A stretch of DNA of 64,000 nt from Squalus acanthias (taxonomy: Eukaryota), in assembly GCA_030390025.1 (NCBI GenBank), contig CM059453.1:7936001-8000000 (forward strand), written 5' to 3'. How positions within the stretch are numbered: the stretch's first letter is position 1; the number at the start of each line of letters is the position of its first letter. Both the position numbers and the translations under genes were made by a program. The notes under the pieces were generated by a model. That model was not told where the DNA came from. It saw nothing but the letters and a program-made list of their open reading frames with translations, and did not search any database. Shown piece by piece: positions 2,408 through 64,000 of the stretch.

Positions 2408-2425
2408 TGGCACCCCAGATGGGAT
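2408..2425 (+). promoter_or_regulatory. Primer-binding site, complementary to tRNA-Arg(CCU) 3' end
   Basis: TGGCACCCCAGATGGGAT 3 nt after the LTR. The duplicate reads GTCCCATCTGGGGTGCCA at 63401-63418, matching the vertebrate tRNA-Arg-CCT 3' end plus CCA (from recalled sequence). Confidence 0.75.
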
Positions 2426-2587
2426 AAGACAAAGCGGCTAGTATTGTGTAATAGATCGGACCTGGAAAGTAGCTTCCTGATCAGCTGCTGCACTTGAGGA
2501 GGGATAAACCCCGAGGGGAGTGGGGAGTGCGCGATAATTGCGCGCCAATAGTTATTGATGTTAGAGGTCTGTTAAGAAAATCACCAA

Positions 2588-23440: not shown

Positions 23441-24157
23441 AACCAAACTTGGCCCGCAAAGTGAATAGAAAAACAAACAAACTGGGCCCTGGATCTGTAC
23501 CCAAGCCCAACAACACACACACACATAAAGCAACGGGTGTCCCCACTTATGCTATTATTATTTTATTTGTTTAACAAGAAAAACTGGGCCCTGGAACTGA
23601 ACACACATCCATAAACTAACCTGTAAATCCAGTCTGTGATATGGATCTTAGCACGCATTCCCTGTCTCCATCTTTCTCTGTCATATTCTCTCTCACAGGC
23701 TTTCTCTCTCTCACTCTTTATTCTGTAGAAAACCTAATAGATACCATGAACATTTGAACTTCAGAAGCTAAGATTCTTAAAGTAAATAGTGGCCTAATAT
23801 TTATGTTATTAAATAGAGTGTAAAAATGCTATTTAATAGTTACAGCAACAGGTAGTAATAGGAATTTACCAGGTGCAGCAAGAACTGTGAGAGTAGTTAA
23901 GTGGGGTAGAATTTGATATTGTCAGTGGCATAAAGAAATTAAGGGAACTGCTTAAATCAACAACAGGATCGTGCTTAAGAAATCCAGCAAAAAGCAAATA
24001 GAATACCTACAATGAGATAATAAATACATGACAAGAAATAGAAAATGAAGACTATTAATACAGTGTGAAGGAAATCAGTGCAATTTGGAATATCATAGGT
24101 GGTGGAAGTAGGTTGTGGCGGAGGGGTGGGCGTGGAGATTATTCCCGAGACACCAGA

Positions 24158-29120: not shown

Positions 29121-29326
29121 ACTGCCTGTCCTGTAACTGTACAGATGAATAGGGGGCTGGGTTCATCTCTGCTCAGGGTTAATCAGCAGTAACCGGCCTC
29201 ATTATATCCTGTAACTGAGGGCAAATCACTGATGCACACTGTCATACTCGAAGTGGCTCAGATTTCCAGCAGTTTTAATCGCCAACATTTGAGAAGTGGC
29301 GCAAGCTGTCTGAGCTACCACGGTTC

Positions 29327-29337
29327 CCAATGATTGG
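29327..29337. promoter_or_regulatory. Palindromic double CCAAT box upstream of the Siglec-like leader
   Basis: CCAATGATTGG conserved at 622-632, 10562-10572, 29327-29337 and 55687-55697 (-), 120-155 bp before each ATG. Confidence 0.55.
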
Positions 29338-29487
29338 TGGGTGGCGAACTGCTGACCTCCTAATACTCTGATTCGATTCGCTATGAACTGCAGTCTATTA
29401 CCGACGAATGGAATCTAGAAACCTGATTAATTATATCTGTGATAAAAACAATTTCCGACATTCTGACATCGTCAACCGCCTCCAGTC

Positions 29488-32400
29488 ATGAAGAGTATTA
29501 GATTGATCTCCCTTCTGATATTTAGCGAAGGTATAATATTCATTTTAATAATTAATATAGAAGCGATTTCCATTGTGTGGCAAATCAACACGTTCATTGT
29601 TTGTGGAGATAGTACATGTTTAGTTGGAAATTTACAAATGACTGATTTGCCCATTTAATGTATATTTCATTCGAAAAACTATCTTATATTTTATAAGATT
29701 GATCTAATATTTACTCTATGGTTTATCGACTTTCAATGGAATACTTAATGGAATCTAAAGAGTTTTAATGAAACTTTCACGAGTTTTAATGGATGTACTA
29801 ATGAATTTGTTTGTGGATGTTTATTAAAGGTTAAATTAACAGTATTTAACTTGACGATCAGGGTATGTTTAAATTGCGATATTATTGCGGATTTCATTGG
29901 GTTTTTAATTTCTGTTTTTTCTCCAGTTGTCCATAGTTCACGATGGTCTCTGAAGGTGCCGTGGAAGGTCTCGGCGGTAAACGGGTCATGTGCAGAAATC
30001 CCGTGTACATTTGATTATCCCGCCTATGGCCGCAGTCCACAGGGTATGTGGTTAAAGGGGGGGTCCTAAACCTAGTACCTCAGGGGTGTCGATTATCTGT
30101 GATTCCCGGAATTCAGACAACGTGCCCTTGAACTACAGAGGGCGAGCTCAGTTCACCGGCGAATTTGAAAAGAAACAATGTTCCTTACAGTTAAAGGACA
30201 TCAGGAAGATCGATGAAGGTGTTTATTATTTCAAATTGGAGATCATCAATGCCCAGAATAAGAGAGAAGGATATTCTACCGAATCTAAGGTCACTCTTTC
30301 TATTTTAGGTAGGTTTTTTGATTTGTTCCTTATGTAGTTTATATTCCATCGCGCCAGTGCCATTTAATTTTAGCATAAAATGGGAAGATTTCGTGTTACT
30401 CTTGCCCCATGTCACAGGCTACACCGGCAGGACTGGTCCATTGTGTAATACCCAGGTGTGTGTTATATTTTGACTTGAACTGAAATGGGGCGCTGGCCTT
30501 CATAGTAACTTACAGAAGCACCCTCTGTTGATCAGTCAGTAAGTGCAATACTAGATGGCATTACCATCATTGGTGTCACCATTGACCAGAAACTTAACTG
30601 AACCAGCCACGTAAATACTGTGGCAAAAAGACCAGGTCAGAGGCTGGGTATTCGGTAGCGAGTGTCTCACCTCCTGACTCGCAAAGCCTTTCCACCATCA
30701 ACAAGGCACAAGTCAGGAGTGTGCTGGAATACTCTCCACTTGACTGGATGAGTGTAGCTCCAACAACAATCAAGATGCTCGACGCCATGCAGGACAAAGC
30801 AGCCCGCCTGATTGGCACCCCATCCACCACCTTAGACATTCACTTCTCCACCACCGGCGTACCGTGGCTGCAGTGTGTACCATCTACAAGATGCACTGCA
30901 GCAACTCGCCAAGGCTTCTTCGGCAGCACCTCCCAAACAGGCGACCTCTTCCACCTCGAAGGACAAGGGCAGCAGGCGCATGGGAACACCACCATCTCCA
31001 AGTTCCCCTCCAAGTTACACACCATTCTGACTTGGAAATATATCGCCGAACTTTCATCGTCGCTGGGTCAAATCCATGGAACTGCCTCCCTAACAGCACT
31101 GTGGGAGTACATTCAGCACACGGACTGCAGCGGTTGAAGAAGGTGGCTGACCTCCTCCTTCTCAAGGGCAATTAGGGATGGGTAATAAATGCTGGCCTTG
31201 TCAGCGACGCTCACATTCCATGAATCAATAAAAGTAAAGACCGGTTTGTCAAAATTCAATCCCTCAAGGATGTGGTTAATTAAATCAAGATTTGTACTTC
31301 TAATGGACAGGTCAGAGGACATGGTCAATACTTAGGAGGGATTGCTTCAATCTGATCATTTACAGGCCCCCATATCATAGGGTCGTGTTTCAAATTCTTT
31401 CGGCTAAATCAACTTTCACACCCTTGGCCATTATTTAAATTAAAATCTACTGTAACGCGAATGTCCTTCTCTCCTTACAGATAAACCATGGATATCAGTC
31501 TCTGGGGAATTGATTGCAGGAACGCCAGCAAACCTGACCTGCTCAGTCACCCACAGTTGCCCGTCCGCCAACCTTGAATTGATGTGGACCCATGACAATG
31601 TTGTACCTCCATTTCTGCCAGAGATTAAAACTTCAAAAGGACATGATAACAGTTTCGACGATTCCCAGAAGGTTTCATCCACTTTCAACTTCAGACCATC
31701 ACTGGACCATCATGCGAAGCAGCTGGGATGTAAACTTATAGTCGACGGTGTCACAGCTACTGATGAAGAAACTCTTACACTGGATGTTAAAAGTAAGTGC
31801 CTGCTCTACGCTTCATTCAACCAACTTATTGATGAACCGGTTCAATAGATATCTGTATGCTAAATATAGTGATAGCTCGCCTGGACAATTGAAGTTCTTG
31901 TAAGTCACATTATTTCACATTTGCCCCAGAACCATGGAGTAATATTGGTCACTCCAGGGATGTGGTTTATATGAAAAATAATTGCAAATGCTTCCAACAC
32001 CTGATTTTTGTTCAGCCACAGAGTAACTGGAACATACAGGCCAAGGAGAGTCAATTCATGGTCTGAGCTAACTCACATATATACATAGGTCATACGGCAG
32101 AGAAACAGGTCATTGGGCCCAACCAGTCCATGCCGGCGTTTATGCTCCACTCGAGCCTCCTCCCGTCTTTCCTCATCTAAATCTATCAGCCTAACCCGCT
32201 ATTCCCTTCTCCCTCATATGCTTGTCCACCCTCCCCTTAAATGCATCTATACTATTCGCTTCAACCACTCCCTGTGGTAGCGAGTTCCACATTCTCACCA
32301 CTCTCTGGGTAAAGAAGTTTCTTCTGAATTCCCTATTGGATTTCTTGCTGACTATCTTATATTGATGGCCTCTAGTTATCTTCTTCTCCACAAGTGGAAA

Positions 32401-41400: not shown

Positions 41401-43298
41401 CACGCACTTTACAAAACTCCTCTATTTGCTGTTTAAATAGTGTTACCTTAGTGTGCGGAATTCATGTGGCGTTATTTGAATAGGTGCGAACAAACTCTCT
41501 ACAATTGTGATGAACCATTGTACAGGCTGAACATTCCTCTCAGTGCGGACTGCACCAAGTCATTAACCAATTCCTTGAGATAGTGACGGCTGGAAATATG
41601 CAATGACCTGAATGTCCGAACGGATTTATTAGAGATAATTTGAATCAATTATGTGATGTGACTTAATTGCATTTTTTTTGAATCAGGAAGAAGACAAGAG
41701 CTACCACTGCTGTTCCCCTTACCAACAACGATTCGGTGAGTTAATTTGTGGCGTAGACCCCGTTTAAAACCGAGGTAAGTGAGGGCATGGCAACGGCCCA
41801 GCATCCGATGGAGTTACCCCTGCCTGATATTGGCACTGTTTGTAACCAGAGTGAGACACATTAACCGTGCAGTTCAACGGTTCAACACGTATTCTGGACA
41901 CCTGTTTGACGGAGTTTATAAGGGATACAATGAGCACCTCACACGACTAACAGAAAAGGTCATGTCCTGATAAATGCATCATGCATTTTCTCTGTAGTGG
42001 ATTTCTATTGAATTCAAAGTGGGTCTGAGAAAACCGATTGACCGTGTCACTACATGTATTAAACAGAATAATGTTTACGCTCCCCTCTAACATCACATTA
42101 CCACCGGTGGTTTAAATAATCAACAAGATCACGTAGTATGAGGGGTTTGAGAGGGTCAAATAGCATGGTATTTTGCTGGGATTATTAACATTGTCCTCCC
42201 TGGATTTTATGGCTCTATTTTACCGCGAGGCGGCAACATTCCGTGCGCGGGGCGTGGTTGAACAATAGGCTCACATAACCAAGCCCGGACAGATTTTAAA
42301 TCCGGGGTCTTAATTCAATATCCAGCCCCGACTCCCACACGAACCAGACTGAAATCATTGGCTATAATAAAAACTGAAAATGCTGGAAATAGTCAGCAGT
42401 TCAGGCAGCGTCTGTGGAGAGAGAAACAGAGTTAACGTTTCAGGTCGATGACTTTTCGTCAGAACTGGAAACGATTCGAGAAGTAACAGATTTTAAGCAA
42501 GTGCAGATGCAGGGAAAGGAGGATAGGACAAAAGGGAAGTTCTGTGATAGGGTGGAAGGCAGGAGATATTAAATGACAAAAGGGATGATGGTGCGAGGCA
42601 AAAGGAGATGGTATTGGGCAAGTAAAGCAACATAAATTGGGTCTAGAGGAGGTGTAAATGGCAACGGCAGAACCATTACCAACAACTACCGTCCGAAACA
42701 ATGGGGCAGTGGTGACGATCGGAAATTGATGAACTCAATGTAGAGCCTGCAAGACTGATAAATGCCTAATCGGAAGAGGGGGTGCCGTTCCTCGAGTTTC
42801 CGTTGAGTTTCATTGGAACAGTGTAAGAGGCCGAGGTCAGAGAGGTCAGAGTGGGAGTGGAGCGGAGAACTAAAATCAAGCTGGCCCAGGGGGACACAGC
42901 GGGAACTCACCCCCCAGCAGTCGGGTAAGTGTTGAGGAGGGGGGAATACTATCGGCGCGGCGGTACTCGGGGCCAGGGGAAGCCCACGGTTTCCTTTTCG
43001 AGGCAGAAGGAGTTGAATAGGACAATTAGAATGGTGGCAGTGATGGAATAAAGCGGGTTATTCTGGTACAGTAAACTCACTCTCACCCGGTTCAGGAGCT
43101 CCACATCTAAAGCACTGCTTTCTTTTACAGAGACAAGACAAGTATGGAAAAACTGGTGTGAGAGGGACTCCATCAAACCAGTCAGCTCAAAGTGAAGAGG
43201 TCCTGTATGCAGCAGTCAGTGTTTCAAAGGTTCGAAAGCAGGAGCGATATCTCCAGAACGAGGAGTCCTGTGAATACGCCGCAATTAAATGCAATTGA
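29488..43298 (+). CDS. Siglec-like inhibitory receptor copy B (leader-V-C2-C2-C2-TM-cytoplasmic ITIM), ~527 aa if a 1-nt homopolymer frameshift is corrected
   Basis: Exons 29488-29530, 29927-30308, 31481-31792, 33123-33380, 34245-34532, 38590-38674, 41687-41735, 43131-43298, all AG/GT and phase compatible (1,1,1,1,1,2,0). Siglec Cys pattern: GSCAEIPC, KQCSL, CSVTHSCP, CT..HCTCSVRANP. Confidence 0.85.
29927..30308 (+). CDS. Copy B V-set exon (frameshift at G7, 30057-30063)
   Basis: VVHSSRWSLKVP...GSCAEIPCTFDYP...GMWLKG / YRGRAQFTGEFEKKQCSLQLKDIRKIDEGVYYFKLE. Confidence 0.9.
31481..31792 (+). CDS. Copy B Ig domain 2 (C2-set)
   Basis: DKPWISV...GTPANLTCSVTHSCP...W...LGCKL...TLTLDVK, open frame. 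Confidence 0.9.
32085..32750 (-). mobile_element. CR1 3' fragment (intronic)
   Basis: ORF 32191-32547 FFTQRVVRMWNSLPQ. Confidence 0.9.
33123..33380 (+). CDS. Copy B Ig domain 3
   Basis: GPQKP...EGSSLLLYC...NGEYWCVADNNLG...ISVQ. Confidence 0.9.
34245..34532 (+). CDS. Copy B Ig domain 4 (membrane proximal)
   Basis: YKPTVVSGPTCTSSESGVHCTCSVRANPPTNITW...ISCFGVNEHG. Confidence 0.9.
34795..36740. mobile_element. Cluster of CR1 3' fragments (~34795-35150 -, ~35340-35990 +, ~36377-36740 -)
   Basis: ORF2 C-terminal motifs in ORFs 34865-35119, 35694-35966 and 36448-36747. Confidence 0.85.
36843..38205 (+). mobile_element. CR1 ORF2 RT region to 3' end, degenerate
   Basis: GEVPEDWRSANVV, YMDFSKA, GVPQGSVLGPLLF, KFADDTKI. 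Confidence 0.95.
38590..38674 (+). CDS. Copy B transmembrane exon
   Basis: GTFPWEIVISVLAAAAVILLILIVVMVHR; no charged residue in the hydrophobic core. Confidence 0.9.
39000..39410 (+). mobile_element. Old DeuSINE-like (SacSINE1-like) copy
   Basis: GGAGATGCCGTCTTTC...AAAGATCCCATG...GAAGAGCAG central domain. Confidence 0.6.
39832..40521 (-). mobile_element. DeuSINE-like tRNA-derived SINE with nested CR1 tail (~39962-40180)
   Basis: tRNA-like head TGTCAGCCGTG.CTCAGTG...GTTCAAGTC on the - strand; Deu-type core. Confidence 0.8.
41687..41735 (+). CDS. Copy B cytoplasmic exon
   Basis: tttgaatcag|G AAG AAG ACA...TCG|gtgag gives (R)KKTRATTAVPLTNNDS and bridges phase 2 to 0. Confidence 0.7.
42365..42870 (-). 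mobile_element. Penelope-like element 3' end/pLTR (second copy ~45045-45590, +)
   Basis: GIY-YIG C-terminus (GLLHC...RKLEERH.LFRLG) and minimal hammerhead CTGACGA...GAAAC. Confidence 0.75.
43131..43298 (+). CDS. Copy B terminal exon with ITIM (VLYAAV) and ITIM-like motif (CEYAAI)
   Basis: RQDKYGKTGVRGTPSNQSAQSEEVLYAAVSVSKVRKQERYLQNEESCEYAAIKCN*. Confidence 0.9.
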   Translation, partial: RQDKYGKTGVRGTPSNQSAQSEEVLYAAVSVSKVRKQERYLQNEESCEYAAIKCN

Positions 43299-47782: not shown

Positions 47783-48265
47783 GTATCTGCAAAAATAGCA
47801 GCTTAAGCGAGAGATTGGAGAAATCGAACTCCAGCAAGCGTTCAATTTGGAAGTGGAGAATATTGGGGCAAATACTGCAAGCAAGAACAACGAGTTTTTC
47901 AAATGTCTTGATTGTAAAAACGTGTCGTATCTCTTCGTTGTTATAATTGGTTCATTTGGAAAAAGAAACATTAGAGATTCAGAGAAGCGTCCTCTCTAAG
48001 TTCTGGTCCTTTTCAGGCAAATTTAATAGCTGCATATTCGCTCATCTCCTTGCTATTTACATAACCGTGCCCTTCAGGAATATTTGAAAAGTGCACAGTG
48101 GTGTAAGTAATTTCTTCCTTCTGCTAAGTTGAGTTGGATATCACTTCCCAGCCGTCACTGTCTGGATGATCCCTCTGCAACAGAAACAACACGTGCAGCG
48201 TATAAAAGACTACACGTGGTACAGATACAGAAATAAAACGGGGTACAGGTAGACAAAGAAAACTT

Positions 48266-48986
48266 GGCACAGAATTACCGAGAACACGTACGCACTGTGT
48301 ACTGTGTACTCACCCGCAAGGCCTCCTGAAGTGCCGGTTTCCTGCATGCACTGCGCATGCGTGGGAAACCGGCACTTCCGGTATGGCGAAGGGGGCGTTT
48401 CCTAGGTGAACCGCGTGCGCACTAAAGGCTGCGCGCACGCAGCACATTTAGGTTTTTTTTCAGGTTTCAATGCGAGGGTAAGTATGGAAGATTCAACACG
48501 AGTAAAAAGGAGGCGTAAGACCCCTTTTGAACAAGGTAAGTAGTTAATTAAGTATAATTTTAAAGAAAGGTAAGTTTATTATTATAACTTTTAAAAAGAA
48601 TTCAAATGTTTTCAAAAATTTAAATTTTTGTTTAAAGTGCTTAATTTATTTAACTATAGTTATTTTATTAATGTGATGGATTTTTAAAAATTTATTTGAG
48701 GTTTAGCTGTTCTTTTGGGGCCGATTTCAATTCACAGATTTGACATCCTGTCAAATCTATGAATTAAAGATGGTCTGCTGCCATTGGCTCTCCATGGCCC
48801 ACGTGATCCCAGGGATCGCATCGCACTAACTGCGCCCCTGGGACACGCAAGCACTGCGCGCCGGCACTAGGGAAAGGCCCAGGACCCGAAGTTCCTGTGG
48901 GCCCGAAACACAACGGCAGGCGTGGTAGGTAAGAGCGCGCGTGATCCTTACCCCCGCGGCAAGCCGGCCACCCGAATTTCTAGGCC
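48266..48986 (-). mobile_element. Non-autonomous TIR DNA transposon (MITE-like, probably PIF/Harbinger), copy E1
   Basis: Ends GGCACAGAATT...AATTTCTAGGCC; reverse complement of E2 and E6. Confidence 0.75.
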
Positions 48987-48996
48987 ATTGTTTTGG

Positions 48997-49660
48997 GCAG
49001 TTTATATGTAGAATAACGGATACCCGGGAGTCAGATACAGGCTGTAATCTAATCGAGGATTTCGGGTGAAGGCGGGGTTATATAAAGAATAACAGAAAAC
49101 TGGGAGTGAGTTACAGGTCTGAATATAATCGAGGGGTTTCAGTGTGGTTTGTATATAGAATAACAGCTACCCGGGAGTGAGTTACAGGCTGGAATCGAAT
49201 CGAGGGGTTTGGGGGAGGGTTTATACATAGAATAACAGTTACCCGGGAGTGCTTTACAGGATGAAATCTAATCGAGGAGTTCGGGAGTGGGTCGGCGTTA
49301 TATAAATAATTACAGATAACTGGGAGTGAGTTACAAGCTGGAATCTAATCGAGGGGATTCAGTTTGGTCTGTATATAGAATAACAGATACCCAGGAGCGA
49401 GTTACAGGCTGGAATCTAATCGAGGGGTTCGGGGGAGGGTTTATATATTGAATAACCGACAGTGGGGAATTAGTTCAAAATTGGAATCTAATCGAGGGTT
49501 TCGTGTGTTTTACATACAGAATAACAGAAACCCGGGAGTGAGTTACAGGCTGGAATCTAATCGAGGGGTTCGGGTGGTTTATATATTGAATAATGGATAC
49601 TCGGGGAGTGTGTTACAGGCAGGAATCTAATCGAGGGGTCCGGGCGGTTTATATATAGAA
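48997..49660 (+). repeat. ~70-bp minisatellite, ~9 units
   Basis: GGGAGTGAGTTACAGGCTGGAATCTAATCGAGGGGTTCGG...TTTATATAGAATAACAGATACCC. Confidence 0.9.
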
Positions 49661-49990
49661 AGTGCTACGCAACCAATTGATTAATTATGTTCTAATTCCC
49701 TCGCTCGTTTATATCCGAGCTAACAAATGCGTTTCTGAGGGTGAAGTCTGCGCCAGGTGTAAGCTGGTCCCATGCTTCAATCGCAGGTCTCTGCAAGGCT
49801 GGCAGCTGCCACATTATGAATGACATCGACGCTAAATGGAATGAAACAGCCAGTGATCCAATTCCTGATCACTGCTGAGTGAGCCGTTCGCAACGCGTCA
49901 CTGGGCCTGAATCTTAACTGGGTCAGCCCAGGGCCAGGCACAACTGTGTGCACGGAGCCCACTGGCAGTCAGTGCGCTTGAGTTAACAAT

Positions 49991-50752
49991 GGCCTAGAAA
50001 TTCGCGTGACCGGCTTGCCGCGGGGGTAAGGATCGAGCGCGCTCTTACCCACCGCGCCTGCCGTTGTGTTTTGGGCCCACAGGAACTTCGGGTCCCGGGC
50101 CTCTCCCAAGAGCCAGCGCGCAGTGCTTGCGTGTTCCAGGGGTGCAGTTAGTGCGATGCGACCCCTGGGATCACGTGGGCCATGGAGAGCCAATGGCAGC
50201 AGACGATCTTTCATTCATAGATTTGACAGGAGAGCTGTCAAATCTGTGAATTGAAATCGGCCCCAAAAGAACAGCTAAACTTCAAATAAATTAAAAAAAA
50301 ACATCACATTTATAAAATAACTATATTTAAATAAATTAAACACTTTAAACAAAAATTTTAATTTTTGAAAAAGTTAAAATACTTTTTTAAAGTTATAAAA
50401 ATAAACTTACCTTTCATTAAAGTATCTAAAAAAGATAAACCTGTTGAAAAAAAATTAAAATTATCCTTAATTAACTACTTGCCTTGTACAAAAGAGGTCT
50501 TACGCCTCCTTTTTACTAGCGTAGAATCTTCAATACTTACCCTCGCATTGAAAGCTGAAAAAAAATCTAAGTGTGCTGCGTGCGCGCAGCCTCTAGCGCG
50601 CACGCTGTTCACCTAGGAACCGCCCCCTTCACGCGACCGGATGTTCCGGTTTCCCGCGCATGCGCAGTGCATGCAGGAAACCGGCACTTCGGGAATGAAT
50701 ACGGGTGAGTACGGACTGTGTACTCACCCGGGAACGGACGAATTTTTGTGGC
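49991..50752 (+). mobile_element. Same TIR element, complete copy E2
   Basis: GGCCTAGAAATT...AATTTTTGTGGC; flanks AAT/AAC. Confidence 0.8.
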
Positions 50753-50848
50753 AACTGGATCCAAGAGAACAATTGAACCGTGCGCTAGCCAGAGGAGAAA
50801 TTATTCGCAGGCGCTAGCCGAAAACTGGCGTTATCGCATCGCAGGGAA

Positions 50849-53268
50849 TTAAATAGTAAGATGGGCATAGAACAGGCGGCCGTTCCGTTTTGCGCTTCCG
50901 TCCAATACAAATCCCACTCCAACGGTTCTGAAACGGAAGGATACATTGGGAACTGACAAGAACAGACAGTTAGTGAGAAGAAGCATTAGATCTCCCGTGT
51001 ACTGACAGTGTGTCATGGGATTAAATACAGTGGCTACACCGCGCCATCTACTGGCCGTAGCCAGAAACTGCACAATCATCCGAATTCGCCATAATAACTG
51101 GGGGGCAGAAATTCGTCAGTTGTCGGGTGAGTCCGCACTGTGCACTCACCCCTGGACTGAACGAAAGTGCCGGTTTCTTTCATGCACTGCGCATGCGCGG
51201 GAAACCGGCACTTCCGTTCCCCTGAGCAAAGGGGTTTAGAGGTCGAACGGCCACGCCGGAGGGCCAGCGCGTTCGCCTCGCATTTCGGGGTTTTTTTGCA
51301 GGTTCCTCCGTGAAGGTAAGCACGGAGAAGATACACATTGGCCTAGAAATTCGGGTGGCCGGTTTGCCGCGGGGGTAAGGATCGCGCGCGCTCTTACCTA
51401 CCGCGCCTGCCGTTGTGTTTCGGGCCCACAGTAACTTCGGGTCCTGGGCCTTTCCCTAGTGCCGGCGCGCAGTGCTTGCGTGTCCCAGGGGCGCAGTTAG
51501 TGCGATGCGATCCCTGGGATCACGTGGGCCATGGAGAGCCAATGGCAGCAGACCATCTTTCATTCATAGATTTGACAGGATGTCAAATCTGTGAATTGCA
51601 ATCGGCCCCAAAAGAACAGCTAAACCTGAAATAAATTTTAAAAAATCCATCACATTAATAAAATAACTATAGTTAATTAAATTAATCACTTTAAACAAAA
51701 ATTTTAATTTTTGAAAACATTTAAATTCTTTTTAAAAGTGATATGGCCCAAAAATTCGGCCGAATACGGGAGAGTACCCGCTGCGTGCTCAATCGTATTC
51801 GTTCCCGAAGTGCCGGTTTCCTGCATGCACTGCTCATGCACAGGAAACCGGCACTTCCGGTATGGTGTGTGGGGCGGTTCCTAGGTGAACCGCGTGCGCA
51901 CTAAAGGCTACGCGCACGCAGCACACATAAGTTTGTTTTCAGGTTTCAATGCGAGGGTAAGTATGGAAGATTCTACACAAGTAAAAAGGAGGCATAAGAC
52001 CCCTTTTGAACAAGGTAAGTAGTTAATTAAGTATAATTTAAAATTTTTTAACAGAATTATCTTTTTTAGAGATTTTAAAGAAAGGTAAGTTTATGGCCCA
52101 GAAATTGAAGTTCGATGGTTGCCGCGGGGGTAAGGATCCCCCGCGATATCGCACTCCGCGCCTGCCTTTATAGTTTTGGCCCACACGAACTTCAGTTCCT
52201 GGGCCTCTCCCTGGTGCCGGCGCGCAGTGTGTGCGTGTCCCAGAGGCGCAGTTACTGCGATGCGACCTCTGGGATCACGTGGGCCAGTTAGAGCCAATGG
52301 CAGCACACCATCTTTCATTCATAGTTTTGACAGGAAGAGCTGTCAAAATTATGAATACAACAAGCCCCCAAAAGAACAGCTAAACCTCAGTTAAACTTTA
52401 AAAAAGCCATCACATTAATAAAATAACTATAGTTAAATAAATTAACCACTTTAAACAAAAATTTAAATTTTTGAAAAAATTTAAATACTTTTTAAAAGTT
52501 ATAAAAATAAACTTACCTTTCTTTAAAGTCTCTAAAAAAGATAAACCTGTTGAAAAAAATTTAAAATAATACTTAATTAAATACTTACCTTGTTAAAAGG
52601 GGGTTTTACGACTGCTTTCTTCATGTGTAAAATCTTCAACACTTACCTGCGCGTTCAAACCTGAAAAAAAAACGAAGTGTGCTGCGTGCGCGCAACCTAT
52701 AGCGCGCACACGGTTCACTGAGGAACCGCCCCCTTCGCAATATACGAAGTGCCGGTTTCCCGCGCATGCGCAGTGCATGCAGGAAACCGCCACTTCGGGA
52801 CCTAATACGCGAGAGTACACAGTGCGTAATCTCCCGTATTAGGTCTAATTTTTGTGCCTATGTGTTTAGAATTTTAACCGCAAGAGATAATATAGTCGGG
52901 GAGTATTCATTAGTCTGGTTAATGTGTATAATGACATTGGGAAGCTTTTATTTAGAACGACTCATTTCAAAATAAGTCCAGACCAGAGAAAATGTTCATG
53001 ATGCCATTTACCCGATCATTGCACACAATGGCCACTGCAACATTTCCCTGTTCCTGAGGTGAGGAGGCCATTCCACCCTTTAAGAACACCGTCAAACCAG
53101 TTCCTATTACATCTGTTTAACTTTGGATGTGCCTGTAATGTGATCCCAGACAATGATCTAAACATTCCATCTCCTCACTTACCTTAGTTCAGTGGGTTGT
53201 GCAACACACAGTTAATCACTGCACCCTTGTCTGTAGGAGAGACCCCAACAGGGACATTTACCTTCTTC
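50849..53268 (-). pseudogene. Cytoplasmic exons of an older Siglec-like paralog (53183-53268 and 50849-50952)
   Basis: tttcag|G AAG AAG...|gtaagt gives (R)KKVNVPVGVSPTDKGAVINCVLHNPLN*; the next exon has a CTAAC branch point and in-phase ITIM LFYAHL; ~53870-54030 is homologous to the post-TM intron of copy B (~38715-38880). Confidence 0.55.
51102..52858. mobile_element. Nest of four abutting TIR elements: E3 51102-51339 (-, partial, related subfamily), E4 51340-51744 (+, left half), E5 51745-52094 (-, right half), E6 52095-52858 (+, complete)
   Basis: Each junction starts with a GG(C/G)(C/G)(C/T)A(G/A)AAATT terminus; E6 is flanked TAT/TAT. Confidence 0.85.
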
Positions 53269-54037
53269 CTGAAACAGAAAATACAAATGATTCACGACTC
53301 CTAATTACAGATAATTCGCTTCAGTACACCGCCCAGTGTCCCTTTGTTGAACAACAGGGGGCGCACTATACTAAATCGTTCTTGTTACTGTTTCCTGATT
53401 GGCTGCGACCAGATTAAATTCCCGTTTCTTTTCTATCTCTACACTTTCCTAATTCCAAAGCAAGCATTCTCTCTATCTGATGAAGCTGGTTATATCTATC
53501 TTGACCTGTTTGACAAATTCAGTGTTCACTAAACATTTTATGGATGGTAAGCGAGCGGCGTCTACTGGTGCAGAATAACCATAGCAATTTCCGCCAAGTC
53601 TTAAAAATGCACCGGAATTTGCCCTTTCGTGTCCAGCAATGGTTCTGTGGAGCATTTTATGACCTCCTGAGTCATGAGGTCTTCCGCCAATATGGCCACG
53701 GGAGCTTTGAGCTGCCAAACCGTGTTCAGCTTAAATTGTCTGGTATGAAATACGGCGCCTCCGCTCAAGTGACAGGCTAGATTCTCCACCCAAGTTCTGC
53801 ACTGGCCCTTGATCTACAATCTTTGAACTAGGAAGTGAAAGACCAGACATGGGACGCTGAACTTCTGACATTCCCCTACTTTCCCCTCACAAGACACTTG
53901 AACTCCAGCAAGCATTCCCTTGTCAACTATTAGCTGAGATTCAGGGTCAATGATATCTGGGGTTAATTACATTAAGCAATATTTGCTCATGGGCGGAAAT
54001 CCTAAAGTCACGTCCTTTTGAAATCTGTCTTATTAAA

Positions 54038-54575
54038 GCACGAGTAAGCGTTCTCCAAGGAGAACTTAGGAACACACGACAACGCAAAATCATCGAGCAG
54101 AAACTGATAGCCAAGTTCCGCAGTCATGAAGACGGTCTCAACCGGGATCTTGGGTTTATGTCACGATACATGACGTGATCCGGACTCGAGTCATCGTTGG
54201 ATTGTTCACAGATGTGATTCCCAGTAAAAAAGTCAAAATTTTAAAGATTATCGTTTTACATACAGACGGCAGCTTTTGGCACGTTAGACCCCCTGCGACT
54301 CCACCTCATTGTCTCAGTTGTATCTTGCTATGTCTTTGATGTGGGACCTTCCTGGCTGACCTGATTAACTTTATCACACCTCGGCAGATAAACAGTCAGG
54401 ATGATTTAATTTAGTTGTCTGCAATTGTAAAGTACACATGCATTGTTCTCTATCTATATATGCATTGGCGATTCTGCATCTCTTTACTTCACCCGACGAA
54501 GGAGTAGTAAGCTCCGAAAGCTTGTGATTTCAAATAAAACTGTTGGACTATAACCTGGTGTTGTGCGACCTCTCA
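54038..54575 (+). mobile_element. Penelope-like element fragment (different family)
   Basis: QRKIIEQKLIAKFRSHEDGLNRDLGFMS GIY-YIG end; CCGACGA-AGGAG..CTCC-GAAA hammerhead-like motif then AATAAA. Confidence 0.75.
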
Positions 54576-54718
54576 ATATTATTCAATGGACCAGTCCTGC
54601 CGCTGTAGCCTGTGACATGGGCCAAGAGTAACACGATAACTGTCCATTTTAGGCTAAAATTAAATGGCACTGGCGAGATGGAATATAAACTGCAAAAGGA
54701 ACAAATCAAAAAACTTAC

Positions 54719-55536
54719 CTAAAATAGAAAGAGTGACCTTAGATTCGGTAGAATATCCTTCTATCTTATTCTGGGCATTGCTGATGTTCAATTTGAAATA
54801 ATAAACACCTTCATCGATATTCCTGATGTCCTTTAATCGTAAGGAACATTGTTTCTTTTCAAAGTCGCCGGTGAACTGAGCTCGCCCTCTATAGTTCAAG
54901 GCCACATTGTCTGAATTCCGGGAATCATAGATAATCGACACCCCTGAGGTTCCAGGATCAGGTCCCCCCTTTAACCACATACCCTGTGGACTGCGGCCAT
55001 AGGCGGGATAATCAAATGTACACGGGATCTCTGCACATGACCCGCTCACCGCCGACACATTCCACGGCACCTTCACAGACCATCGTGAACTATGGACAAC
55101 TGGTGAAAAAATAGAAATTAAAAACTCATTGAAATCCGCAATAATATCGCAATTAAAACATACCTTGACCGTCAAGTTAAATACTATTCATTTAACCTTT
55201 AAACATCCACTAACATATTCATTATTACATCCATTAAAACTGGTGAAAGTTTCATTAAAACTTTTCAGATGCCATTAGTTATTCAATTGAAAGTCTATAA
55301 ATCATAGAGTAAATATTAAATCAATCTTATAAAATACAAGATAAAGTTTCCAATGAAATATACATTAAATGGGCAAATCGGGAATTTGTAAATTACAAAC
55401 TAAACATGTACCATCTCCCCAAACAATGAACGTGTTAATTTCCCACACGATGGAAATCGCTTCTGACATTAATTATTAAAATGAATATTTTACCTTCGCT
55501 AAATATCAGAATGGACATCAATCTAATACTCTTCAT
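54719..55536 (-). pseudogene. Siglec-like copy C: intact leader (55494-55536) and intact V exon (54719-55099), truncated downstream
   Basis: MKSIRLMSILIFSE|VVHSSRW...DEGVYYFKLN...TLSIL, open frame and canonical splice sites; homology to copy B stops at ~54585. Confidence 0.85.
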
Positions 55537-58500
55537 GACTGGAGGCGGTTGACGATGTCAAAATGACGGAAATTATTTTTATCTCAGATATAATTAATCA
55601 AGTTTCTAGATTCCGTTCGCCGGTAATAGACTGGAGTTCATAGCGCATCGAATCAGAGTATTAGGAGGTCAGCTGTTCGCCACCCACCAATCATTGGGAG
55701 CCGCGGTTGCTCAGACAGCTTGCGCCACTCCTCAAATGTTGGCGAGGAAAACTGCTGGAAATATGGGCCACTTCGAGTATGACAGTGTGCATCAGTGATT
55801 GACCCTCAGTTACAGGATATGATGAGGCCTAGCTACTTCTGATTAACTCTGAGCAGAGATGAACCCAGCCCCCTCATCATCTGCACTGTTACAGGACAGG
55901 CGGTGACACTTTATATTGCAATATCTAAAATCGCCTCTCCACCAGCTTTTGAAGCCCCGACTCACAACTCCCACACACTGAGCTATTTATCAGCCCTTGA
56001 ACTGTGAGTGCTGAAGTGTGAAGCTGTGATTAGTCCTGTAGCCGTTGTCTGCAGACGTGTGGGTTGATCACCTTCAGTAGTTCGGGGACACAACACCTAA
56101 CTGAAATGTCAAAAGACACACAGGAGTTTATCAGTAAATAGTTTCAAGTGGCTAAAGTGCCATTTATAGAAGTGACGTCAATTGTTTATACTGACACTGC
56201 AGCGAGATGAAATCTGCTGAAATTAACTCATTGAGATCCGAGTTGCTACAATGACGGGTTTATGAAGTTTCTGACTTCAGTGCTAGAACTGTGAGGTGTG
56301 ACGTGAGCTTTCAGATAGGAGTGTCAATGTTGCTGGAATTAACGCGGATATTTTTATCTACGGGAATAAATGCCTGCAAATTGATCAGTGGGATCAAATC
56401 CTGGATCTAAACGGGAGCCTCATTCGAACACAGTCCAGCTTCAAACTGGGCGCATTTGGAATCAGATTATGAAGCAGAATTACTTCAGATTAGTTGCAAG
56501 ATAAGAGGACCGTATCACTGCTGCCATGCAGGGGTTAGTGATCAATCACTACCTTACCTTATAGATCGCAGTAAAGCACCTCAGATGAGCCTCGTGCAGT
56601 TTGTTCAACTCACTCTTTCCCATTTTCACAATTCTAAATCTGAAATCCGTTATATTTTCTGAGCAAATTGCTTATTTTTCTGCAGCTCTCCCATTACAAT
56701 GTGTTGAGCGTTCTATTCCTACTAATTGGACGTCTCCACACAGGAAAGATATTTAATTCTCCTGGTTTTTCCAACGCACACAATGAGAGGGGCTCTGCAG
56801 CCGCGACAGATAAATCAGGGCTCCTGAACATCCCGGGCAACCAAAGCCTTGTAGAAAACCCGGAACTGTTGAAACAGTGCCTTCTCGGGAGCGCCTCGTG
56901 GTTATTCCACTCCCTCAAGGATATTAAATAAGTGAATACGTGTCAGTGAGAGTGAATTGCACATGGTCACTTTGCAGCATCCACGCGACCAATAGTCATT
57001 CACCCGTCCAATTCTCCTTAAAATCGGTCCTGACACTAATTGTGGGGTATGTAGAACGGTTGCTGTATTTGGGGTGTGCAGACGAAAGGATTGTGCATCG
57101 GCAGGTTAATAATTAAATCAATACACAGAAAAGGATATAGATTCACTGGCAAAGCTACAAAACAGATTTTCAAGTATTATACCAGAAATAAGAGTTTATA
57201 AACAGGAGGAAAGATTGAACGGTCTGGGGCGCTTTGCTCTAGAAAAGAGAAGGCTGACAGGTGTCCTAATAGAGGCCTTTAAAATTATGAAGGTGTTCGA
57301 TAGGGTTGACGTAGAGGAGATGTTTCCATTCGTAGGGAGATCAAAACTCGAGTTCCTCGATATAAGTTAGTCACTGAGAAATACAAGAAGGAATTCAGGA
57401 AAAACTGTTTTACCGAGCGAGTGATTGGAAGGTGGAACTTGCTAGCACAAGGAATAGTTCAGGCGAATATCATAGATGCATTTACTGGTCTGCTAGATAA
57501 GTATATGAGTGGGAAAGCAATGGAAAGTTATGTTGATAGAGTTAGATGAAGAGGGGTGGGAGAAGGCTCAGACCAGTTGGGCCTAATGGACTGTTTCTAA
57601 GCTGCAAATTCGATGTAATTAACTCATCGCATTCAGCGAATTGTTTCCCTTCCTCAGAGCTATACATGGTGTCTCAAAGAAATTCCTCGCACCTCCCTCC
57701 TCCTCCAACTACATACCCCCTCCTCTGCCGCAATGTTCCTACTGGTGTCTCGGGAATAATCTCCCACCCCCCAGCCCTCCGCCCAACCTACCTCAAACAC
57801 CACCTGTGATATTCCATATTGCCACTGATTTCCTTCACACTGTATTAATAATCTGCATTACCTATTTCTTGTCATGTATTTATTATCTCCTTGAAGGTAT
57901 TCTATGTGCTTTTAGCTGGTTTTCTTAAGCACGATCCTGTTGTTGAGTTAAGCAGTTCCCTTCAATCCCTTGATGCCACTGACTATATCAAATTATTTCC
58001 TACTTAGTTACTCTCACAGTTCTTGCTGCAACTGGTCACTTCCTCGTACCACCTGTTGTTGTAACTATTAAATAGAGTTATTACACATTTACAGTAAATA
58101 TTCGGCCACTATTTACTGTGTGAATCTCGGATTCTTAAGATCAAAGGTTCAAGATATATGTGAAGTCCCTGCTCAGTCTTCTTGTTTTCTAGAGCAGAGA
58201 GAGACAGAGAGAAAGTGTGTGAGAGAGAATATGACAGAGAAAAAGGGGAATAGGGAATGCGTGGTAAGATCCATGTCATAATCTGGATTTACAGGCTAGT
58301 TGACGGATGTGTGTTCAGACCCAGGTCTCAGCTTGGCTTTACAGACTTGTTTAGGGATGTGTGTTCAGACCCAGGTCCCAACTCTGCTCTTACTGATATA
58401 CACAGCCTGGGTGTATTAGGTTGAATTATAGTAAAGGCTGGGGTTTTACCAAAGGGGTCTCGATGCGACATTTCATTCAAATCATTCTGTTTGATGCTTG

Positions 58501-61500
58501 GAACACACAGTTACTTTATGGAAATCAACGTGCTTTTTAAATTGAATTGGGACATGGCAATCTGTTAGACTGTGATGGCAAATAGTTTATTGGTGGTTTT
58601 TGCACTGAATTTCAGGAAACCGTACTGACCCGCCTCTCCAACATTCCTGTTCTGAGGTTTATCAGTAGAATCATAGAATAATACAACACAGAAGGTAATT
58701 ATTTACCCTATCGTGCCTGTGCCGGCTCTTTTAAAGAGCTATCCAATTGGTCCCACTGCCATGCTGTTTCTCCACAGCCCTGCAAAAGCCAAATAAATAT
58801 ACACTAAAAAGCAAGTGAATGCCTAATAAAAACTCTTCAAATATACATTAAAATATTTATCAAAATATATCTATAATAAACATTCAATGGATTTCTCAAT
58901 AACTATGAATTAAAATGTTATTAAATGTGCTGTATTGTAAGATTTTAACGATCACCGAGTTCTTGGACAAGACACCAATAGGCAGCAGCCAGTATGTTTG
59001 AGCAATAGATCAAGATTTTTTAAGTATACAGCGTAATATACTTAATATTAGGCGATAGTTTTAGCGAGTCGCTCGCAGCCCTAGGTCTCTGGAACCTCTC
59101 GGACACAGATGATGTCGTCTTAAGACTGTTCCTTTGTCCTCGCCTTTCCAGTATTTTTCCACCAACTTTACCATTTTCAGTGTTATATTGTTTATAGTTT
59201 TTCACCCCATTGGAATTTACTTTATCTCTTTGATTTCTAGCTTCAAGCCGTACAAGGCCTTTCTATACCAAGAGCCCATATCAGCGCTGTTTCACTAGTT
59301 TTGAGGAATCCAGACTATCTCAAGTTTAATCTAACAGATAAATACTTTATCTCCATGATTTCTCTCATATTATGTCCTTATACTAATTATTTTTTAAATA
59401 TCGTTGCAATTAGTTTTGCTAAGCGAATTCTAATTTCTACTTAGCATCATAATATGTGAGTTAATGATTTACCCTTCACTAACAGCCTGTGACTGTTTGT
59501 TATCAAAGCTTAGTCAAAACTGCTTTTGACTGTCCTCGCAGCTGCATTTTGAACAAGTCTTAGCTTTCTTAGTTACTCAGGAATAATTATGGGTAATATT
59601 ATTTCGTCAATGGCTACACTTGAAGTTATACATATATGATTCTCGTCTATTAAATATCTTTAAATATCAGCCTTTCGTACAAGTCCCCACCTCGAGGATG
59701 AAATGTTTTAAACATTGATTCCTCGAATACTTCAATCTATTCTCTGCATGGCGTTGCTGCAAATTGGAGTCCTCTAATTGTGGGGAAAGGAGCGCTTCTC
59801 AAATGAGGCTTTATCCCCCTTTTCATTATAGGCCTGAGTGCTAACTATAGCACTCACAGGGACCGACCGCCTATCGTCATGGATGGAGGACACCCCGGGA
59901 TCTCCCCAACCATCATGTCGGCCGTGCTGATATGTCTTGCCTTCTAGTGCGTCCCAGTCTATCCTTTCTCCTCCGCCTGCTGCTCCTGTTGCTGCATCAT
60001 AGGATCTGGCAGTAACGGCCCTGATCTGATCCCTTACTTAAATTCACTTCCCGTTTCCGGTGTTCCAATTCTGCCCCGCCTGGGGTATCCTCTGGTTCTT
60101 CTATCTTTCTTGATGTTACCCTGCCTGGGTTATCCTCTACGTTGCTTCGGATCTTCTCTTTCGGTGTGCTCAATTAATTTGTTGGTGCTGGTTAATCATA
60201 GGCATGAGTATACAATTGGCTTATGTATCAAAGTCTTACTACACAGGTTACATATATCAAAGACACTATCATTTCAAGTTGGAGAACTACCAGAGCATGT
60301 GAAATAATACAAACCTAAGGGCGTGCTGATATATCAAGCCCAATATCCCACCAGTGTGAGTTGTCCTCTATGCTGTCAATTTCAATATCCATTCTCGAGT
60401 TGTCTTTCTCCAAAACATAAAAATGCTTTAGGGAGGAGTTCAGTTGCATCATGAGCTCACTGAATCCCTCAGACAGCAGGGGAATGTCGTATCCGAATTG
60501 TGCCACATAATTGTGCAGCTCATACTTAAGTATCACATTTACTGTCAGTTTCACTTGAGCATAGGTTTTGATATTGATTAAAACGTGTTGATTGATGGGA
60601 CAGGTCCTGTTAGACCCGTAAAGCATGGTAGTTGCGGTAGTAGTGACACAGGAGGCACCAGCAAAACCACCTCACACTGGATTCGTACTGGTTTTTCCCA
60701 AGCTCTGTTACCTACAAAACACAATTATTACAGTCACAGTTAAATTCAGTCTTACAATCATTTCAAGCGACATTACAGTTTAACAGCTAATCAACAAATT
60801 ATGGACTTAAAAGATTCTCCAGATTTCTCTTTTACTCATATCCATCTTGTGGATTATTCTAACTAAACATGATTTCTCCTTAGCCCTCAATTGTCCCAAT
60901 CCAGATTCCATGTAACTGTCCACTTCAACTTCAATTTCAATCCCTCGAACAGGTACCAGTGTATTTAACTGTATTCTGATTGTTTCATTAATTAGACAGT
61001 TTCTCGATGGAGTATGTGTCAATGCTTTAAAGGTTGTCTCGCTCTCCTGAACCACATTAACCATTTCATGTTTTGCTGTTGTCAAGTAACTGAGCAGACT
61101 GAGACCCGTTCTTCAGTGCACAATCAACATACATTCCCGGATGGTAATTGCTTCATACGTAACAAATCACATTCGCACACTCATATCGGTATCCCCATAT
61201 TATGCCACACGTGCCATCCGATACAAGCCTTTCTCGGACTTTCAGGTGATCTTATCAAAAGATTGTCTGGAGGTCTTTGTTCATCTTCCATCGCATGGTC
61301 CCGGTGTCTTATGTAGTGGCCAGGCTATCAAATTCAGTTTTCTTAAAAAGTTCATTATAGGCAGGGACACAAATGTCTCCAAGAGAAAGCTATCAAATTA
61401 CTATTCTTAACTACACTTTCCTGACTTTCACTAGAAAGTTTGGAAAATTCTCAATTGGTGGTGTAATTCTCCTGTTTCTATCTCACACCCTCAATCACTT

Positions 61501-64000
61501 CCTCTCTTCATTTTACACAGCCTATTAATTACTATTCATATCTCATTCATGAGCCCTGGAGGAACTTTACTGTCCAGTACAATATTTAAGATTGAAAACA
61601 TAGATCAAACATTCTCACTTGGTCCAAGTTATTAACATTTTTTTATTTATCATTATTTTAGAGGATCTTTTATTTTCCCAAAAGTAACCCAATATATAGT
61701 GCCCGAGTCCATTTTCTTATTACAAAATTATCCCAAATTTCAAACAGCAGTATTGTTGAACTGAAAGGTTTTGTTAATGTTCAATTTCATTTCTATCAAT
61801 TTATCTTCCATTTCCAATTTCAGAAACAAGTGATTCTCAGGCTAGGTGGCTTACACAGAGTTTTAACATTAGAGACAGAAGTGCTGCAATTAGTTTACAA
61901 GGTAACTTCCATATAACAAAAGAAAGAAGATAATCCATTGTGGCTCTCCTCGGAGCCCAATGTGTTAATTTATCAAATCATAATTTTCCTTCTGTCACTC
62001 TGGGGAAATATTAACTTAAAATTAAGAAACTTAAATTTAATAATGTCCAATATCTTTAAATGTCATACTAAAGTTGTTGCTTGGTGAACCTAAACAGCTG
62101 TCAGTGGAAAGGGTGAACTCCTTTGCAGGTTTTTAAGAAGGTGGAGTGAAACATTGTCAAGTGCACGCAATTGCGTCACTTCACGTGAATTAAAAAAAAA
62201 CTTTCCCGATCGAAAAAGACAGTTAGTTTTCACACTTTAACTAAACACGAACAGAACCGATAAAAAACAAACTAGTACATGCTTGTAGAAAACCATAAAT
62301 TACGTCATATTTCTTATTGTCCTTTCTTCAGATGCCTTTCCAAAATACTGTAAAAACATTGAATATATCTGGAGAAAAAATAGTTTTTCACATTTAAACA
62401 AATCAAATCAAACTGCTTTGGAAGATTTCACCATAGCAACCGCGACTCCAAGGTTAAATCTTAGACCGAAACTTAATCTTTTGTTAAACACATTTTTTGT
62501 TGTTCTTCTCAGTTTTTACACACCAGCTTAACTTAAATTGTAGTTCAAAGTTTTTTTTTCCAATTCTTGGGGCACAATCTTATTCGCACATTCTTAAAAC
62601 TTCCAAAATCCAAGACAATACAAAAGTGTTAAACGCTTTTAACACAGAGAAGTGGGTGGAGCTAAAACACACATAACCAACACTTTTTGTTTTATAGACT
62701 GACTTTCAGAGAAAGGAATATTATAACGTCTTAAGCCTTCACAGTCGGGGAAAATTGCACACTTTCACACAAACTGAAATTCCTGCATTTTTTTAAGTTT
62801 CCTTTCACTCAGCAAATCTTTTTTTTATTTGTCTCGGCACAAATGTTAATAACTTCCATGTCCGTAAATCTTTAAGTTTCACTTTTTTTTTTCTCTTTTT
62901 GCATCGTCGTTTCAGCAGCTTTTCCTGGCTTTCCAAATCCCTGTTTTTTCCTTCCTTTGCTAAGTTTTCAGATTGGTTAGCCTGCAAATTAGATTTTTTT
63001 CCTTCTTTATCTCTCCCTCTCTCTCCTGCACTTTATGCTTAACCACCTGGCTATATTTCTCTCTGAACCCGTTGTGTTTTTTCTGAGACAGACTTTCTGC
63101 AATAAAGTCTATCACTTTTTCAAAGGGGACTCGGTCTCCTTTGATTAAACATTTCATCAATAATACCTGCACTTTTTCCGCACAGGCTCCTCTGTCTAAG
63201 TTACACTTATATGCTTTAACACAACTTTTATGAGCCATTTGGTGATTTTCTTAACAGACCTCTAACATCAATAACTATCGGCGCGCAATTCATAGGCACT
63301 CTCCACTCCCCACGGGATTTATCCCTCCTCAAGTGCTGCAGCTGATCAGGAAGCTACTTTCCAGGTCCGATCTATTACACAATACTAGCCGCTTTGTCTT
63401 GTCCCATCTGGGGTGCCAATTTGTAAGATCTTAACGATCTGTGCGTTCTTGGACAAAACACAAATAGGCAGCAGCCAGTATGTTTGAGCTATAGATCAAT
63501 ATTTATTAAGCATACAGCGTAATATACTTAATATTAGGCGATAGTTTTAGCTAGTAGCTCACAGCCCTAGGTCTCTGGAACCACTCGGACACAGATAATG
63601 CCCTCTTAATTCTGTTCCTTTCTCCTCGCAATACATCTGTGTGAAGTTGTTCTTTGAATGTCGAGGTTTTAACCCTTGTCTCATCAACAGTTCGTTTGGA
63701 AAGTGTCCATATAAGGTCTTTAACAAAATCACCTTTTTTAATTGGTTTTAATGGTCAAAATACCATTGTCCCTCAGACTAAGGTAGCATCCCACCTTTCC
63801 ATTATTTTTCCACCAACTTTGCCATGTTCAGTGTTATCTTGTTTATAGTTTTTCACCCCATTGGAATTTATTTTTATCTCTTTCATTTCTAGCTTCCCTC
63901 GTACAAGGCCTTTATACCAAGGCCCCATTTCATCGCTGTTTCACTAGTCTTCAGGGATCCAGACTATCTCACTTTAATCTACCAGATAAATACTTTATCT
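55483..64000. repeat. Right arm of the inverted segmental duplication (runs off the window)
   Basis: Reverse complement of 1829-10776 with a ~430 bp deletion near 56872. Confidence 0.95.
58936..64000 (-). mobile_element. Duplicated LTR element: 3' LTR 58936-59681, PBS 63401-63418, 5' LTR from 63422
   Basis: Same element and same 3' flank as 1499-6883; TSD ATAC at 58932-58935 (-). Confidence 0.9.

Follow-up and report, generated by a model that had tools for sequence, protein, structure and literature searches.

A probably split, half-inverted PHIS-like transposable element in an intron of a shark Siglec-like gene, and a possible origin in cleavage of facing transposon ends

The window analysed here, a stretch of 64,000 nucleotides from the shark Squalus acanthias (assembly GCA_030390025.1, contig CM059453.1, positions 7,936,001 to 8,000,000 of the forward strand), carries part of a cluster of Siglec-like receptor genes. 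Gene A, on the plus strand at ~29.9-43.3 kb, has V, three further Ig, transmembrane and tyrosine-motif exons. Gene B lies on the minus strand, and its V-set exon is Siglec/CD22-like in Pfam, ESM Atlas and PDB searches; all five of its protein matches come from sharks, with identities of 52-67% and a query coverage of 93-100% in four. Between this exon and the last exon of gene B, which has an in-frame stop, tblastn found no match for Ig or transmembrane exons, and gene B is probably a broken gene. The exon limits around the transposable elements described below were set from splice motifs and paralogy, and on these limits the whole element cluster would sit in the last intron of gene B, upstream of its last exon. 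Gene B (48010-56399) also seems to be chimeric, with a 5' part (54577-56399) ~90% identical to gene A and a 3' part (54028-48010) with merely 61-75% identity, in patches. Near the junction of the two parts, at 54011-54175, there is an open stub of 55 aa with no Pfam match; in its nearest named Atlas cluster 15% of members have GIY-YIG (score 0.87), so that, as a lead only, it is possibly the 3' end of a Penelope-like element. In gene A the V-set exon has, at ~30057, one G more in a G-run than gene B, which breaks the frame and may be a true frameshift or a homopolymer error.

The elements belong to one TIR family of ~760 bp, of which self-BLAST, an end-motif scan, alignment and nhmmer identified six copies, E1 to E6, all in 48266-52858 (Table 1). 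No copy was found by nhmmer elsewhere in the window, all 25 rows at E up to 10 falling inside this interval. Every copy is at least 3% different from all others. The family has TIRs of 12 nt, with ends GG(C/G)..A(G/A)AATT; a degenerate motif of these ends is matched exactly by eight of the nine termini and with one mismatch by the ninth, and has no further exact match in the window. The last 62 alignment columns differ by 23-55% among all copies, with E1 as the outlier, and are unusable for comparison.

Table 1. Coordinates of the features in and around the element cluster. Element A denotes E4 and E5 taken together.
Feature	Position	Strand	Remarks
Gene B, last exon	48010..48174	-	tyrosine motifs ITYTTV and SEYAAI, in-frame stop before both; limits inferred
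E1	48266..48987 (or 48986)	-	complete, 38-nt internal deletion; control for the TSD rule, AA/AA
71-bp tandem repeat	49000..49660		9.2 copies, between E1 and E2
E2	49990..50752 (or 49991)	+	complete; control for the TSD rule, AA/AA
E3	51102..51338 (or 51339)	-	diverged right-end fragment, left part absent from window
Probable left TSD of element A	51337..51338	+	AT, at cut end of E3; rule (1,0,2)
E4	51339..51743 (or 51340..51744)	+	putative left half of element A, columns 1-409
Junction J1	51743..51744	-	AT beside right end of A, equals left TSD of A
E5	51745..52094	-	putative right half of element A, columns 413-766, inverted
Junction J2	52092..52094	+	TAT
E6	52094..52858 (or 52095)	+	complete, more distant subfamily, matching flanks on both sides
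Host DNA right of E6	52859..53306	-	right TSD (TA), then intron and exon
Gene B, V-set exon	54720..55145	-	Siglec/CD22-like; Pfam, ESM Atlas, PDB, protein matches

No coding function was recognised in the family. The ORFs of the elements gave no match to Pfam or to homologues, one element ORF searched alone gave no homologue, and a profile of four element ORFs had no match among 1.84 billion proteins. In the window as a whole, Pfam gave no transposase, Myb or DDE match in 145 of the 167 ORFs of at least 75 aa; the other 22 span the left end of E1, fall in tandem repeats or lie beyond 58 kb, where the 1.8-9 kb block is duplicated. An Rfam search had no matches. Prokaryotic genome contigs were scanned twice for relatives or an autonomous partner; one scan gave no match, and five contig matches that end at 18-31 nt were dismissed as chance. 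We also set aside a Myb-like start in the right end (MEDS..KRRRKTPF), which presumably resembles Harbinger Myb proteins; it is 17 residues long and its ATG is missing in E2 and E6.

The PHIS superfamily comprises the PIF/Harbinger, ISL2EU and Pangu groups (PMC4482050). Like the non-autonomous PHIS elements described in the accessible text of that paper, the family has short TIRs from GG, AT-rich flanks of 2-3 nt and no coding capacity. As in PIF/Harbinger (Tourist-like) elements the first base is A or G, unless a T is counted as part of the left end, which would then begin with T. The 3-nt TWA duplication of that group is lacking, neither TTA nor TAA being present in any of nine flanks. For the 2-nt AT duplication of ISL2EU, in an A-AT-T target, the length fits, but AT is present in only one of four pairs. 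In a comparison with the 3-nt ANT of Pangu, the left flanks are AAT in E1 and E2 and ATT in E4, with TAT in E6, and the right flanks of E1 and E2 deviate at the third base. The best TSD of the family, unlike those of the groups as that text gives them, is 2 nt long and variable (AA, AA, AT, TA), next to a constant T at the left end, and fits none of TWA, ANT, AT, CWG and TNA cleanly (PMC4482050). Since neither TWA nor AT agrees with the flanks and no transposase turned up in the ORFs covered, the family can be called PHIS-like from its sequence, without placement in a PHIS group. According to the accessible parts of the reports, Harbinger-type elements occur in sharks (PMC12498223, PMC8455134) and the Harbinger/Tourist types are the commonest DNA transposons in one shark genome (PMC12498223); they were undetected in the elephant shark (PMC9179366).

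Several features of the copies were recorded alongside. Five apparently independent insertions (E1, E2, E3, A and E6) are crowded in 48266-52858 around ~1.35 kb of non-element DNA, which may reflect an insertion hot spot or local hopping. The insertion cluster is CpG-rich, with an observed/expected ratio of 0.8-1.3 against 0.58 for the window. The subterminal 50 nt of the right end differ strongly among copies and yet form hairpins (regions 51745-51830, 52773-52858, 50667-50752 and 51102-51187; z -4.5 in E6, -3.5 in E2, -2.3 in E3, -1.1 in E5 and -0.3 in E1); conserved pairing or recurrent template switching may lie behind this. At 51800-52090 and its equivalents, going inward from the right end, there is a palindrome with motifs that we take to be NRF1-like and ETS-like, followed by three GGTAAGT splice-donor matches; inward from the left end are what we assume to be an E-box and a CCAAT box, and these may be promoter remnants of an autonomous parent. 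Two motifs, which we take to be CTCF-like, lie at 51043-51056, in the spacer between E2 and E3, and at 53356-53364, to the right of E6. In the last intron of gene A, 42886-42923 is weakly similar to the end of E3 (z 4.2 among 30 comparisons) and is possibly an old element remnant.

The first-pass annotation of this DNA had read E4 as the left half of an element and E5 as its right half in flipped orientation, and the alignment bears this geometry out. Projected on E6, the last aligned base of E4 is 52503 and the first of flipped E5 is 52507; in alignment columns, E4 ends at 409, followed by one extra T, and flipped E5 begins at 413. The halves therefore do not overlap and the gap between them is just 3 nt. 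The junctions also lie at element ends as had been described, the right end of A being at 51745 and the left end of E6 at 52095, all within 0-3 nt of termini, and E3 is cut at the left end of E4. Two independent breaks would fall within 5 columns by chance in 1.4% of cases if uniform, in 3.2% if weighted to A/T triplets and in 7.0% if weighted to TAT/ATA sites. The left end of E4 probably starts with the T at 51339. J1 shares at most 1 nt with the end of E4, while at J2 the TAT can be read either as internal sequence of E5 or as the left TSD and first base of E6, a microhomology of 3 nt; the sequence lost amounts to 3-7 nt. J1 is the only junction of its kind in the window.

To the right of E6 the DNA aligns to the paralogous intron of gene A right up to the terminus of E6, so that no remnant of E3, E4 or E5 is left on that side; the rest of E3 is absent from the window, both by nhmmer and by alignment of this flank. 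The paralogous intron aligns again, weakly, at the last exon, and as an empty site it gave no alignment across the cluster or to its internal spacers. The host intron after E6 rules out insertion of an E4-E5-E6 block into an otherwise intact E3, and the TSD of E1 in its own palindromic target rules out a macro-transposon running from E1 to E6. E4 stops at the edge of a 58-bp imperfect AT-rich palindrome (51686-51742), and its bases at columns 352 and 406 improve the outer-stem pairing relative to the other copies. A cruciform at this place was rejected as a cause of the break, the fold being no better than shuffled sequences (z -0.62, 52 of 200 as good).

Whether the halves come from one element or two bears on any interpretation, and here their divergence is uneven. 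E1 is the nearest copy to both, with a difference of 3.2% on the left (13/404, 96.8% identity to E4) and 7.1% on the right-internal part (18/252; Fisher p 0.024). Private substitutions number 12/252 in E5 vs 5/403 in E4 (Fisher p 0.0095, or 0.03 if counted as events), and no such left-right difference is present in E1, E2 or E6 (p 0.49-0.79). CpG decay is likewise greater in E5 (5/16 vs 0/22, p 0.009), with two of the five decayed sites common to E1 or E2. The branch of E5 is longer than that of E4 (0.053 vs 0.017) with a likelihood p of 0.03 for a branch picked after seeing the data; p rises to 0.10 if the first 100 columns are left out, and a test of the whole tree gives 0.17. The test for one subfamily, which had been proposed in the first reading, is thus borderline: the whole-tree value rejects nothing, and E5 is more diverged than E4. 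Such an excess of change in E5 speaks against a single element but is not decisive. The imbalance might stem from gene conversion involving E4 and E1, which lies inverted at a distance of 2.35 kb; inverted Ds copies 1.1 kb apart recombine at up to 11% in regenerated rice, according to the available text (PMC3239180). Taking together the breaks 3 nt apart, the common 2-nt TSD described below and the shared nearest copy, it is most likely, as judged from the sequence, that E4 and flipped E5 are one element. The earlier reading is supported in this and in the facing ends as the bounds of the breaks.

The annotation had attributed the structure to reversed-ends transposition (RET). The inversions that RET produces in maize have a new target duplication at both junctions, which in the accessible text is used to prove a single transposition event (PMC8225341, PMC3744419). 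At this locus RET would predict a 2-3 nt overlap of the two halves, and identical bases leading into the left end of E6 and away from the right end of E5. Instead of an overlap we observed the 3-nt gap. We scanned 27 definitions of end position and TSD length with the intact copies E1 and E2 as controls, and only one of the 27 gives perfect TSDs on both (AA/AA in each). This rule, (1,0,2), places the left end one base earlier, with the T, and the right end at GCC or GGC, with a 2-nt duplication; it rests on two controls, was found after viewing all ends and implies ends one base apart. Under it E6 (TA/TA) and the outer pair of E4 and E5 (AT/AT) match, while the pair expected from RET is mismatched (TA/AT). 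Under a plain 3-nt rule E6 matches at 3/3 bases, E1, E2 and the E4-E5 pair at 2/3, and the RET pair at 0/3 (TAT/ATA). The RET pair matches under four of the 27 rules, none of which fits E1 or E2. The chance of both TSD matches is ~0.005 from the composition of the centre (AT 0.095 x TAT 0.056), or 1 in 16 (~0.06) if only A/T dinucleotides count, and in AT-rich DNA little weight can be placed on TSDs as short as 2-3 nt.

The flanks of the control copies, at 48264-48265, 48987-48989, 49988-49990 and 50753-50754, show ends that fit best as asymmetric, with a variable 2-nt TSD, and under the fitting rule E1 lies in a target with perfect 5-bp palindromic arms. AC directly precedes the last three bases in four of the seven non-junction flanks, and with a 1-nt offset in the right flank of E1, but at neither J1 nor J2.

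The suggested check for a target duplication common to E4 and E5 thus returned AT/AT, which favours a single original insertion into E3, and both this element and E6 appear, from their flanks, still to carry their original TSDs. The other features expected of RET are present in part. Two linked elements in direct orientation (E4 and E6, both on the plus strand in a reconstructed ancestral layout) have facing ends at the breaks, and the inverted segment has complementary breakpoints at columns 409 and 413; a new matching TSD at both junctions is lacking. A completed RET insertion is disfavoured because it would have replaced the old TSD bases that are still on both facing ends: there is no new TSD, the old ones are apparently kept, and 3 nt are lost. 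The structure acts like the first half of RET, yet fails its defining TSD test. Homologous recombination, for which long inverted homology at both breaks would be expected, is excluded, the breakpoints having microhomology of at most 3 nt.

We suggest, with about even confidence, that transposase cleaved the right end of A and the left end of E6, which face each other, and that the right half of A became inverted as host repair, rather than a clean re-insertion, put the pieces together again. The strength given to this and to the other readings is a judgement and not a computed posterior. In the order of events that we envisage, E3 would have inserted first, element A would then have inserted into E3, duplicating AT, and E6 would have inserted to the right of A in the same orientation. 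Transposase would have paired the right end of A with the left end of E6 and cut at the TSDs, which is how RET begins, with loss of the spacer and of the rest of E3. The cut ends would have retained TSD bases, as the cleavage model for mPing would permit. Their attachment to the AT-rich centre of A may then have come about through end joining, through fold-back synthesis from the resected right end, or through uncoupled strand transfer, which give the same product and are indistinguishable by sequence; rejoining would have left the right half of A inverted, with 0-3 nt of microhomology and 3-7 nt lost. Cleavage of mPing is proposed to be staggered within the TSD, with 5' overhangs and repair mostly by end joining, and 45 of 46 mPing re-insertions from a donor with altered TSDs were still at TTA/TAA, as far as the accessible text goes (PMC4561436). 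From this model we infer that retained old TSD bases would be a mark of repair rather than of strand transfer. The otherwise surplus T at J1 is also explained by this model. The earlier proposal that E3 records a separate adjacent deletion becomes unnecessary, nested insertion of A into E3 followed by spacer loss being sufficient with no extra event. Against this mechanism, no transposase was found in the 145 window ORFs covered, and the centre hairpin beside J1 offers no evident cause for the break (z -0.62).

The uneven divergence could be taken more literally, E4 and E5 being distinct copies whose complementarity is coincidence. Each would have lost part of its length, from near the AT-rich centre, to a one-ended deletion running from the end of the next element, or, in a variant, nested insertion would have been followed by one deletion. 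This would account for the higher divergence and CpG decay of E5 relative to E4, for the intact TSD of E6, and for the likeness of all three junctions, at each of which a terminus directly adjoins internal sequence of the copy to its left; for mPing termini, the available text documents one-ended deletions in 4/9 cases (PMC7584900). However, two coincidences are needed, the breaks within 5 columns (1.4-7%) and the AT/AT flank match (~0.1-0.25), while a single element is compatible with the whole-tree test (p 0.17) and the nested version demands that E4 be older than E5, opposite to the divergence. We consider two copies unlikely. Slightly less probable in our view is strict RET, in which both ends entered one site in the centre of A and the new TSD has since been blurred by slippage in the A-run or the ATA repeat. 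The geometry is exactly that of an RET inversion with loss of the segment between the transposons, in the accessible account of such events (PMC8225341); a symmetric 2-nt rule brings J1 and J2 into agreement (AT/AT or TA/TA) and then requires just one 4-nt contraction, in a run of five A, to close the gap, and the centre is variable among copies, with three ATA units in E1. But symmetric 2-nt rules fail on both controls, the rules that fit the controls best leave the junction flanks different at every position, the matching old TSDs of E6 and A would be left to chance, and the junctions have a net loss of sequence, not a gain.

The retained TSDs and the lack of a new one would also be expected if a transposase-independent template switch or break repair had inverted the right half by way of 1-3 nt of microhomology at a time when A and E6 already lay end to end or nearly so, and the TAT microhomology at J2 and the AT-rich, partly palindromic centre agree with this. 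Such an event does not account for both breaks being so near the termini (3 nt or less), except with a tiny spacer, and a separate event would then be needed for the truncation of E3; moreover, the fold of the centre is not significant; we think it a rather improbable origin. Misorientation of a 350-bp piece among similar repeats during assembly would be conceivable in a repeat-rich region with large inverted duplications. We regard it as very improbable, given that the window contains no N, that the copies are at least 3% different from each other, and that the junctions obey element termini and TSD logic to the base, which is unexpected of assembly errors.

It is already known that the ends of linked DNA transposons, those of mPing included, can bound rearrangements (PMC7584900), and alternative or aberrant transposition is well studied in maize and rice. 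Several traits are shared with the RET inversions known from Ac/fAc of maize: the elements involved are a nearby pair with the same orientation, their facing ends set both breakpoints, the segment from end to target is inverted and the DNA between the elements has, in our case probably, been lost (PMC8225341, PMC3744419). Unlike those inversions, as the accessible portions of these papers describe them, the structure has no new TSD, apparently keeps its old TSDs and has lost 3-7 nt, and its second break is inside one of the two elements; it involves no hAT element, measures 350 bp as opposed to kilobases, and is an inferred fossil and not an observed event. The structural variants of rice mPing, ascribed to aberrant transposition, involve linked copies with breaks at termini in 9/16 (PMC7584900), and the six copies within 4.6 kb found here are also tightly linked MITEs with breaks at termini. 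The mPing end, by a primer given in the available text, also begins with GGCC (PMC4561436). One mPing case leaves 'a rearranged mPing', which may be the same kind of product. The present case differs from that work, so far as its accessible text goes, in the vertebrate host, in flanks that are not TWA, and in being an inversion, which was unscorable in that short-read study (PMC7584900). Inversions by homologous recombination between inverted elements likewise have no new TSD, but, by the accessible accounts, they flip the DNA between inverted copies and need long homology at both breaks, whereas here half an element is flipped with microhomology of at most 3 nt (PMC3239180, PMC8225341).

In the accessible open-access literature we found no described alternative or aberrant transposition of Harbinger-type elements in a vertebrate, and in the accessible literature more broadly, most of it open-access and with Repbase outside its scope, no report of this family, its TSD type or such an event in a shark. 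A natural fossil of this kind in a shark genome would extend alternative transposition beyond maize and rice, and the kept old TSDs would inform on how the transposase of the family cuts. A bolder proposal, which we make tentatively and think unlikely to hold, is that in this shark PHIS-like MITE, with ends one base apart and a 2-nt TSD, paired cleavage of reversed ends that keeps the old TSDs, together with repair-driven self-inversion, makes a distinct class of footprint. If so, alternative transposition in vertebrates would have a signature that can be searched for and that is overlooked by screens for new TSDs, and fast-evolving receptor clusters might hold more than their share of such scars. 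The biological weight of the present case is small for now, because it is a single intronic event of 350 bp in a probably broken gene, with junction evidence of 2-3 nt and no link to the duplications of the cluster.

This last point concerns the proposal, also made in the first reading, that transposase provided a mechanism for rearranging the immune cluster, which our results do not support. The event is intronic and no duplication breakpoint is near an element end: among 16 segmental-duplication breakpoints the nearest is 1719 nt from any element end, and 12 are more than 17 kb away. The E4/E5 event is a local scar, 350 bp and an intronic deletion, and the evidence of the window does not tie the elements to the larger rearrangements of the Siglec-like cluster. 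The large duplications include those of 1828-8958, inverted at 56873-64000 (94%), and of 28638-30450, inverted at 54577-56399 (90%). A third Siglec-like copy, on the plus strand, has a further Ig exon at 14210-14497 and a remnant of the last exon at 16671-16748. A unit of ~1.58 kb is repeated in tandem at 24153-27551, with further occurrences at 8.8-10.4 kb and, in inverted orientation, at 55.9-57.1 kb; these units are positioned upstream of V exons.
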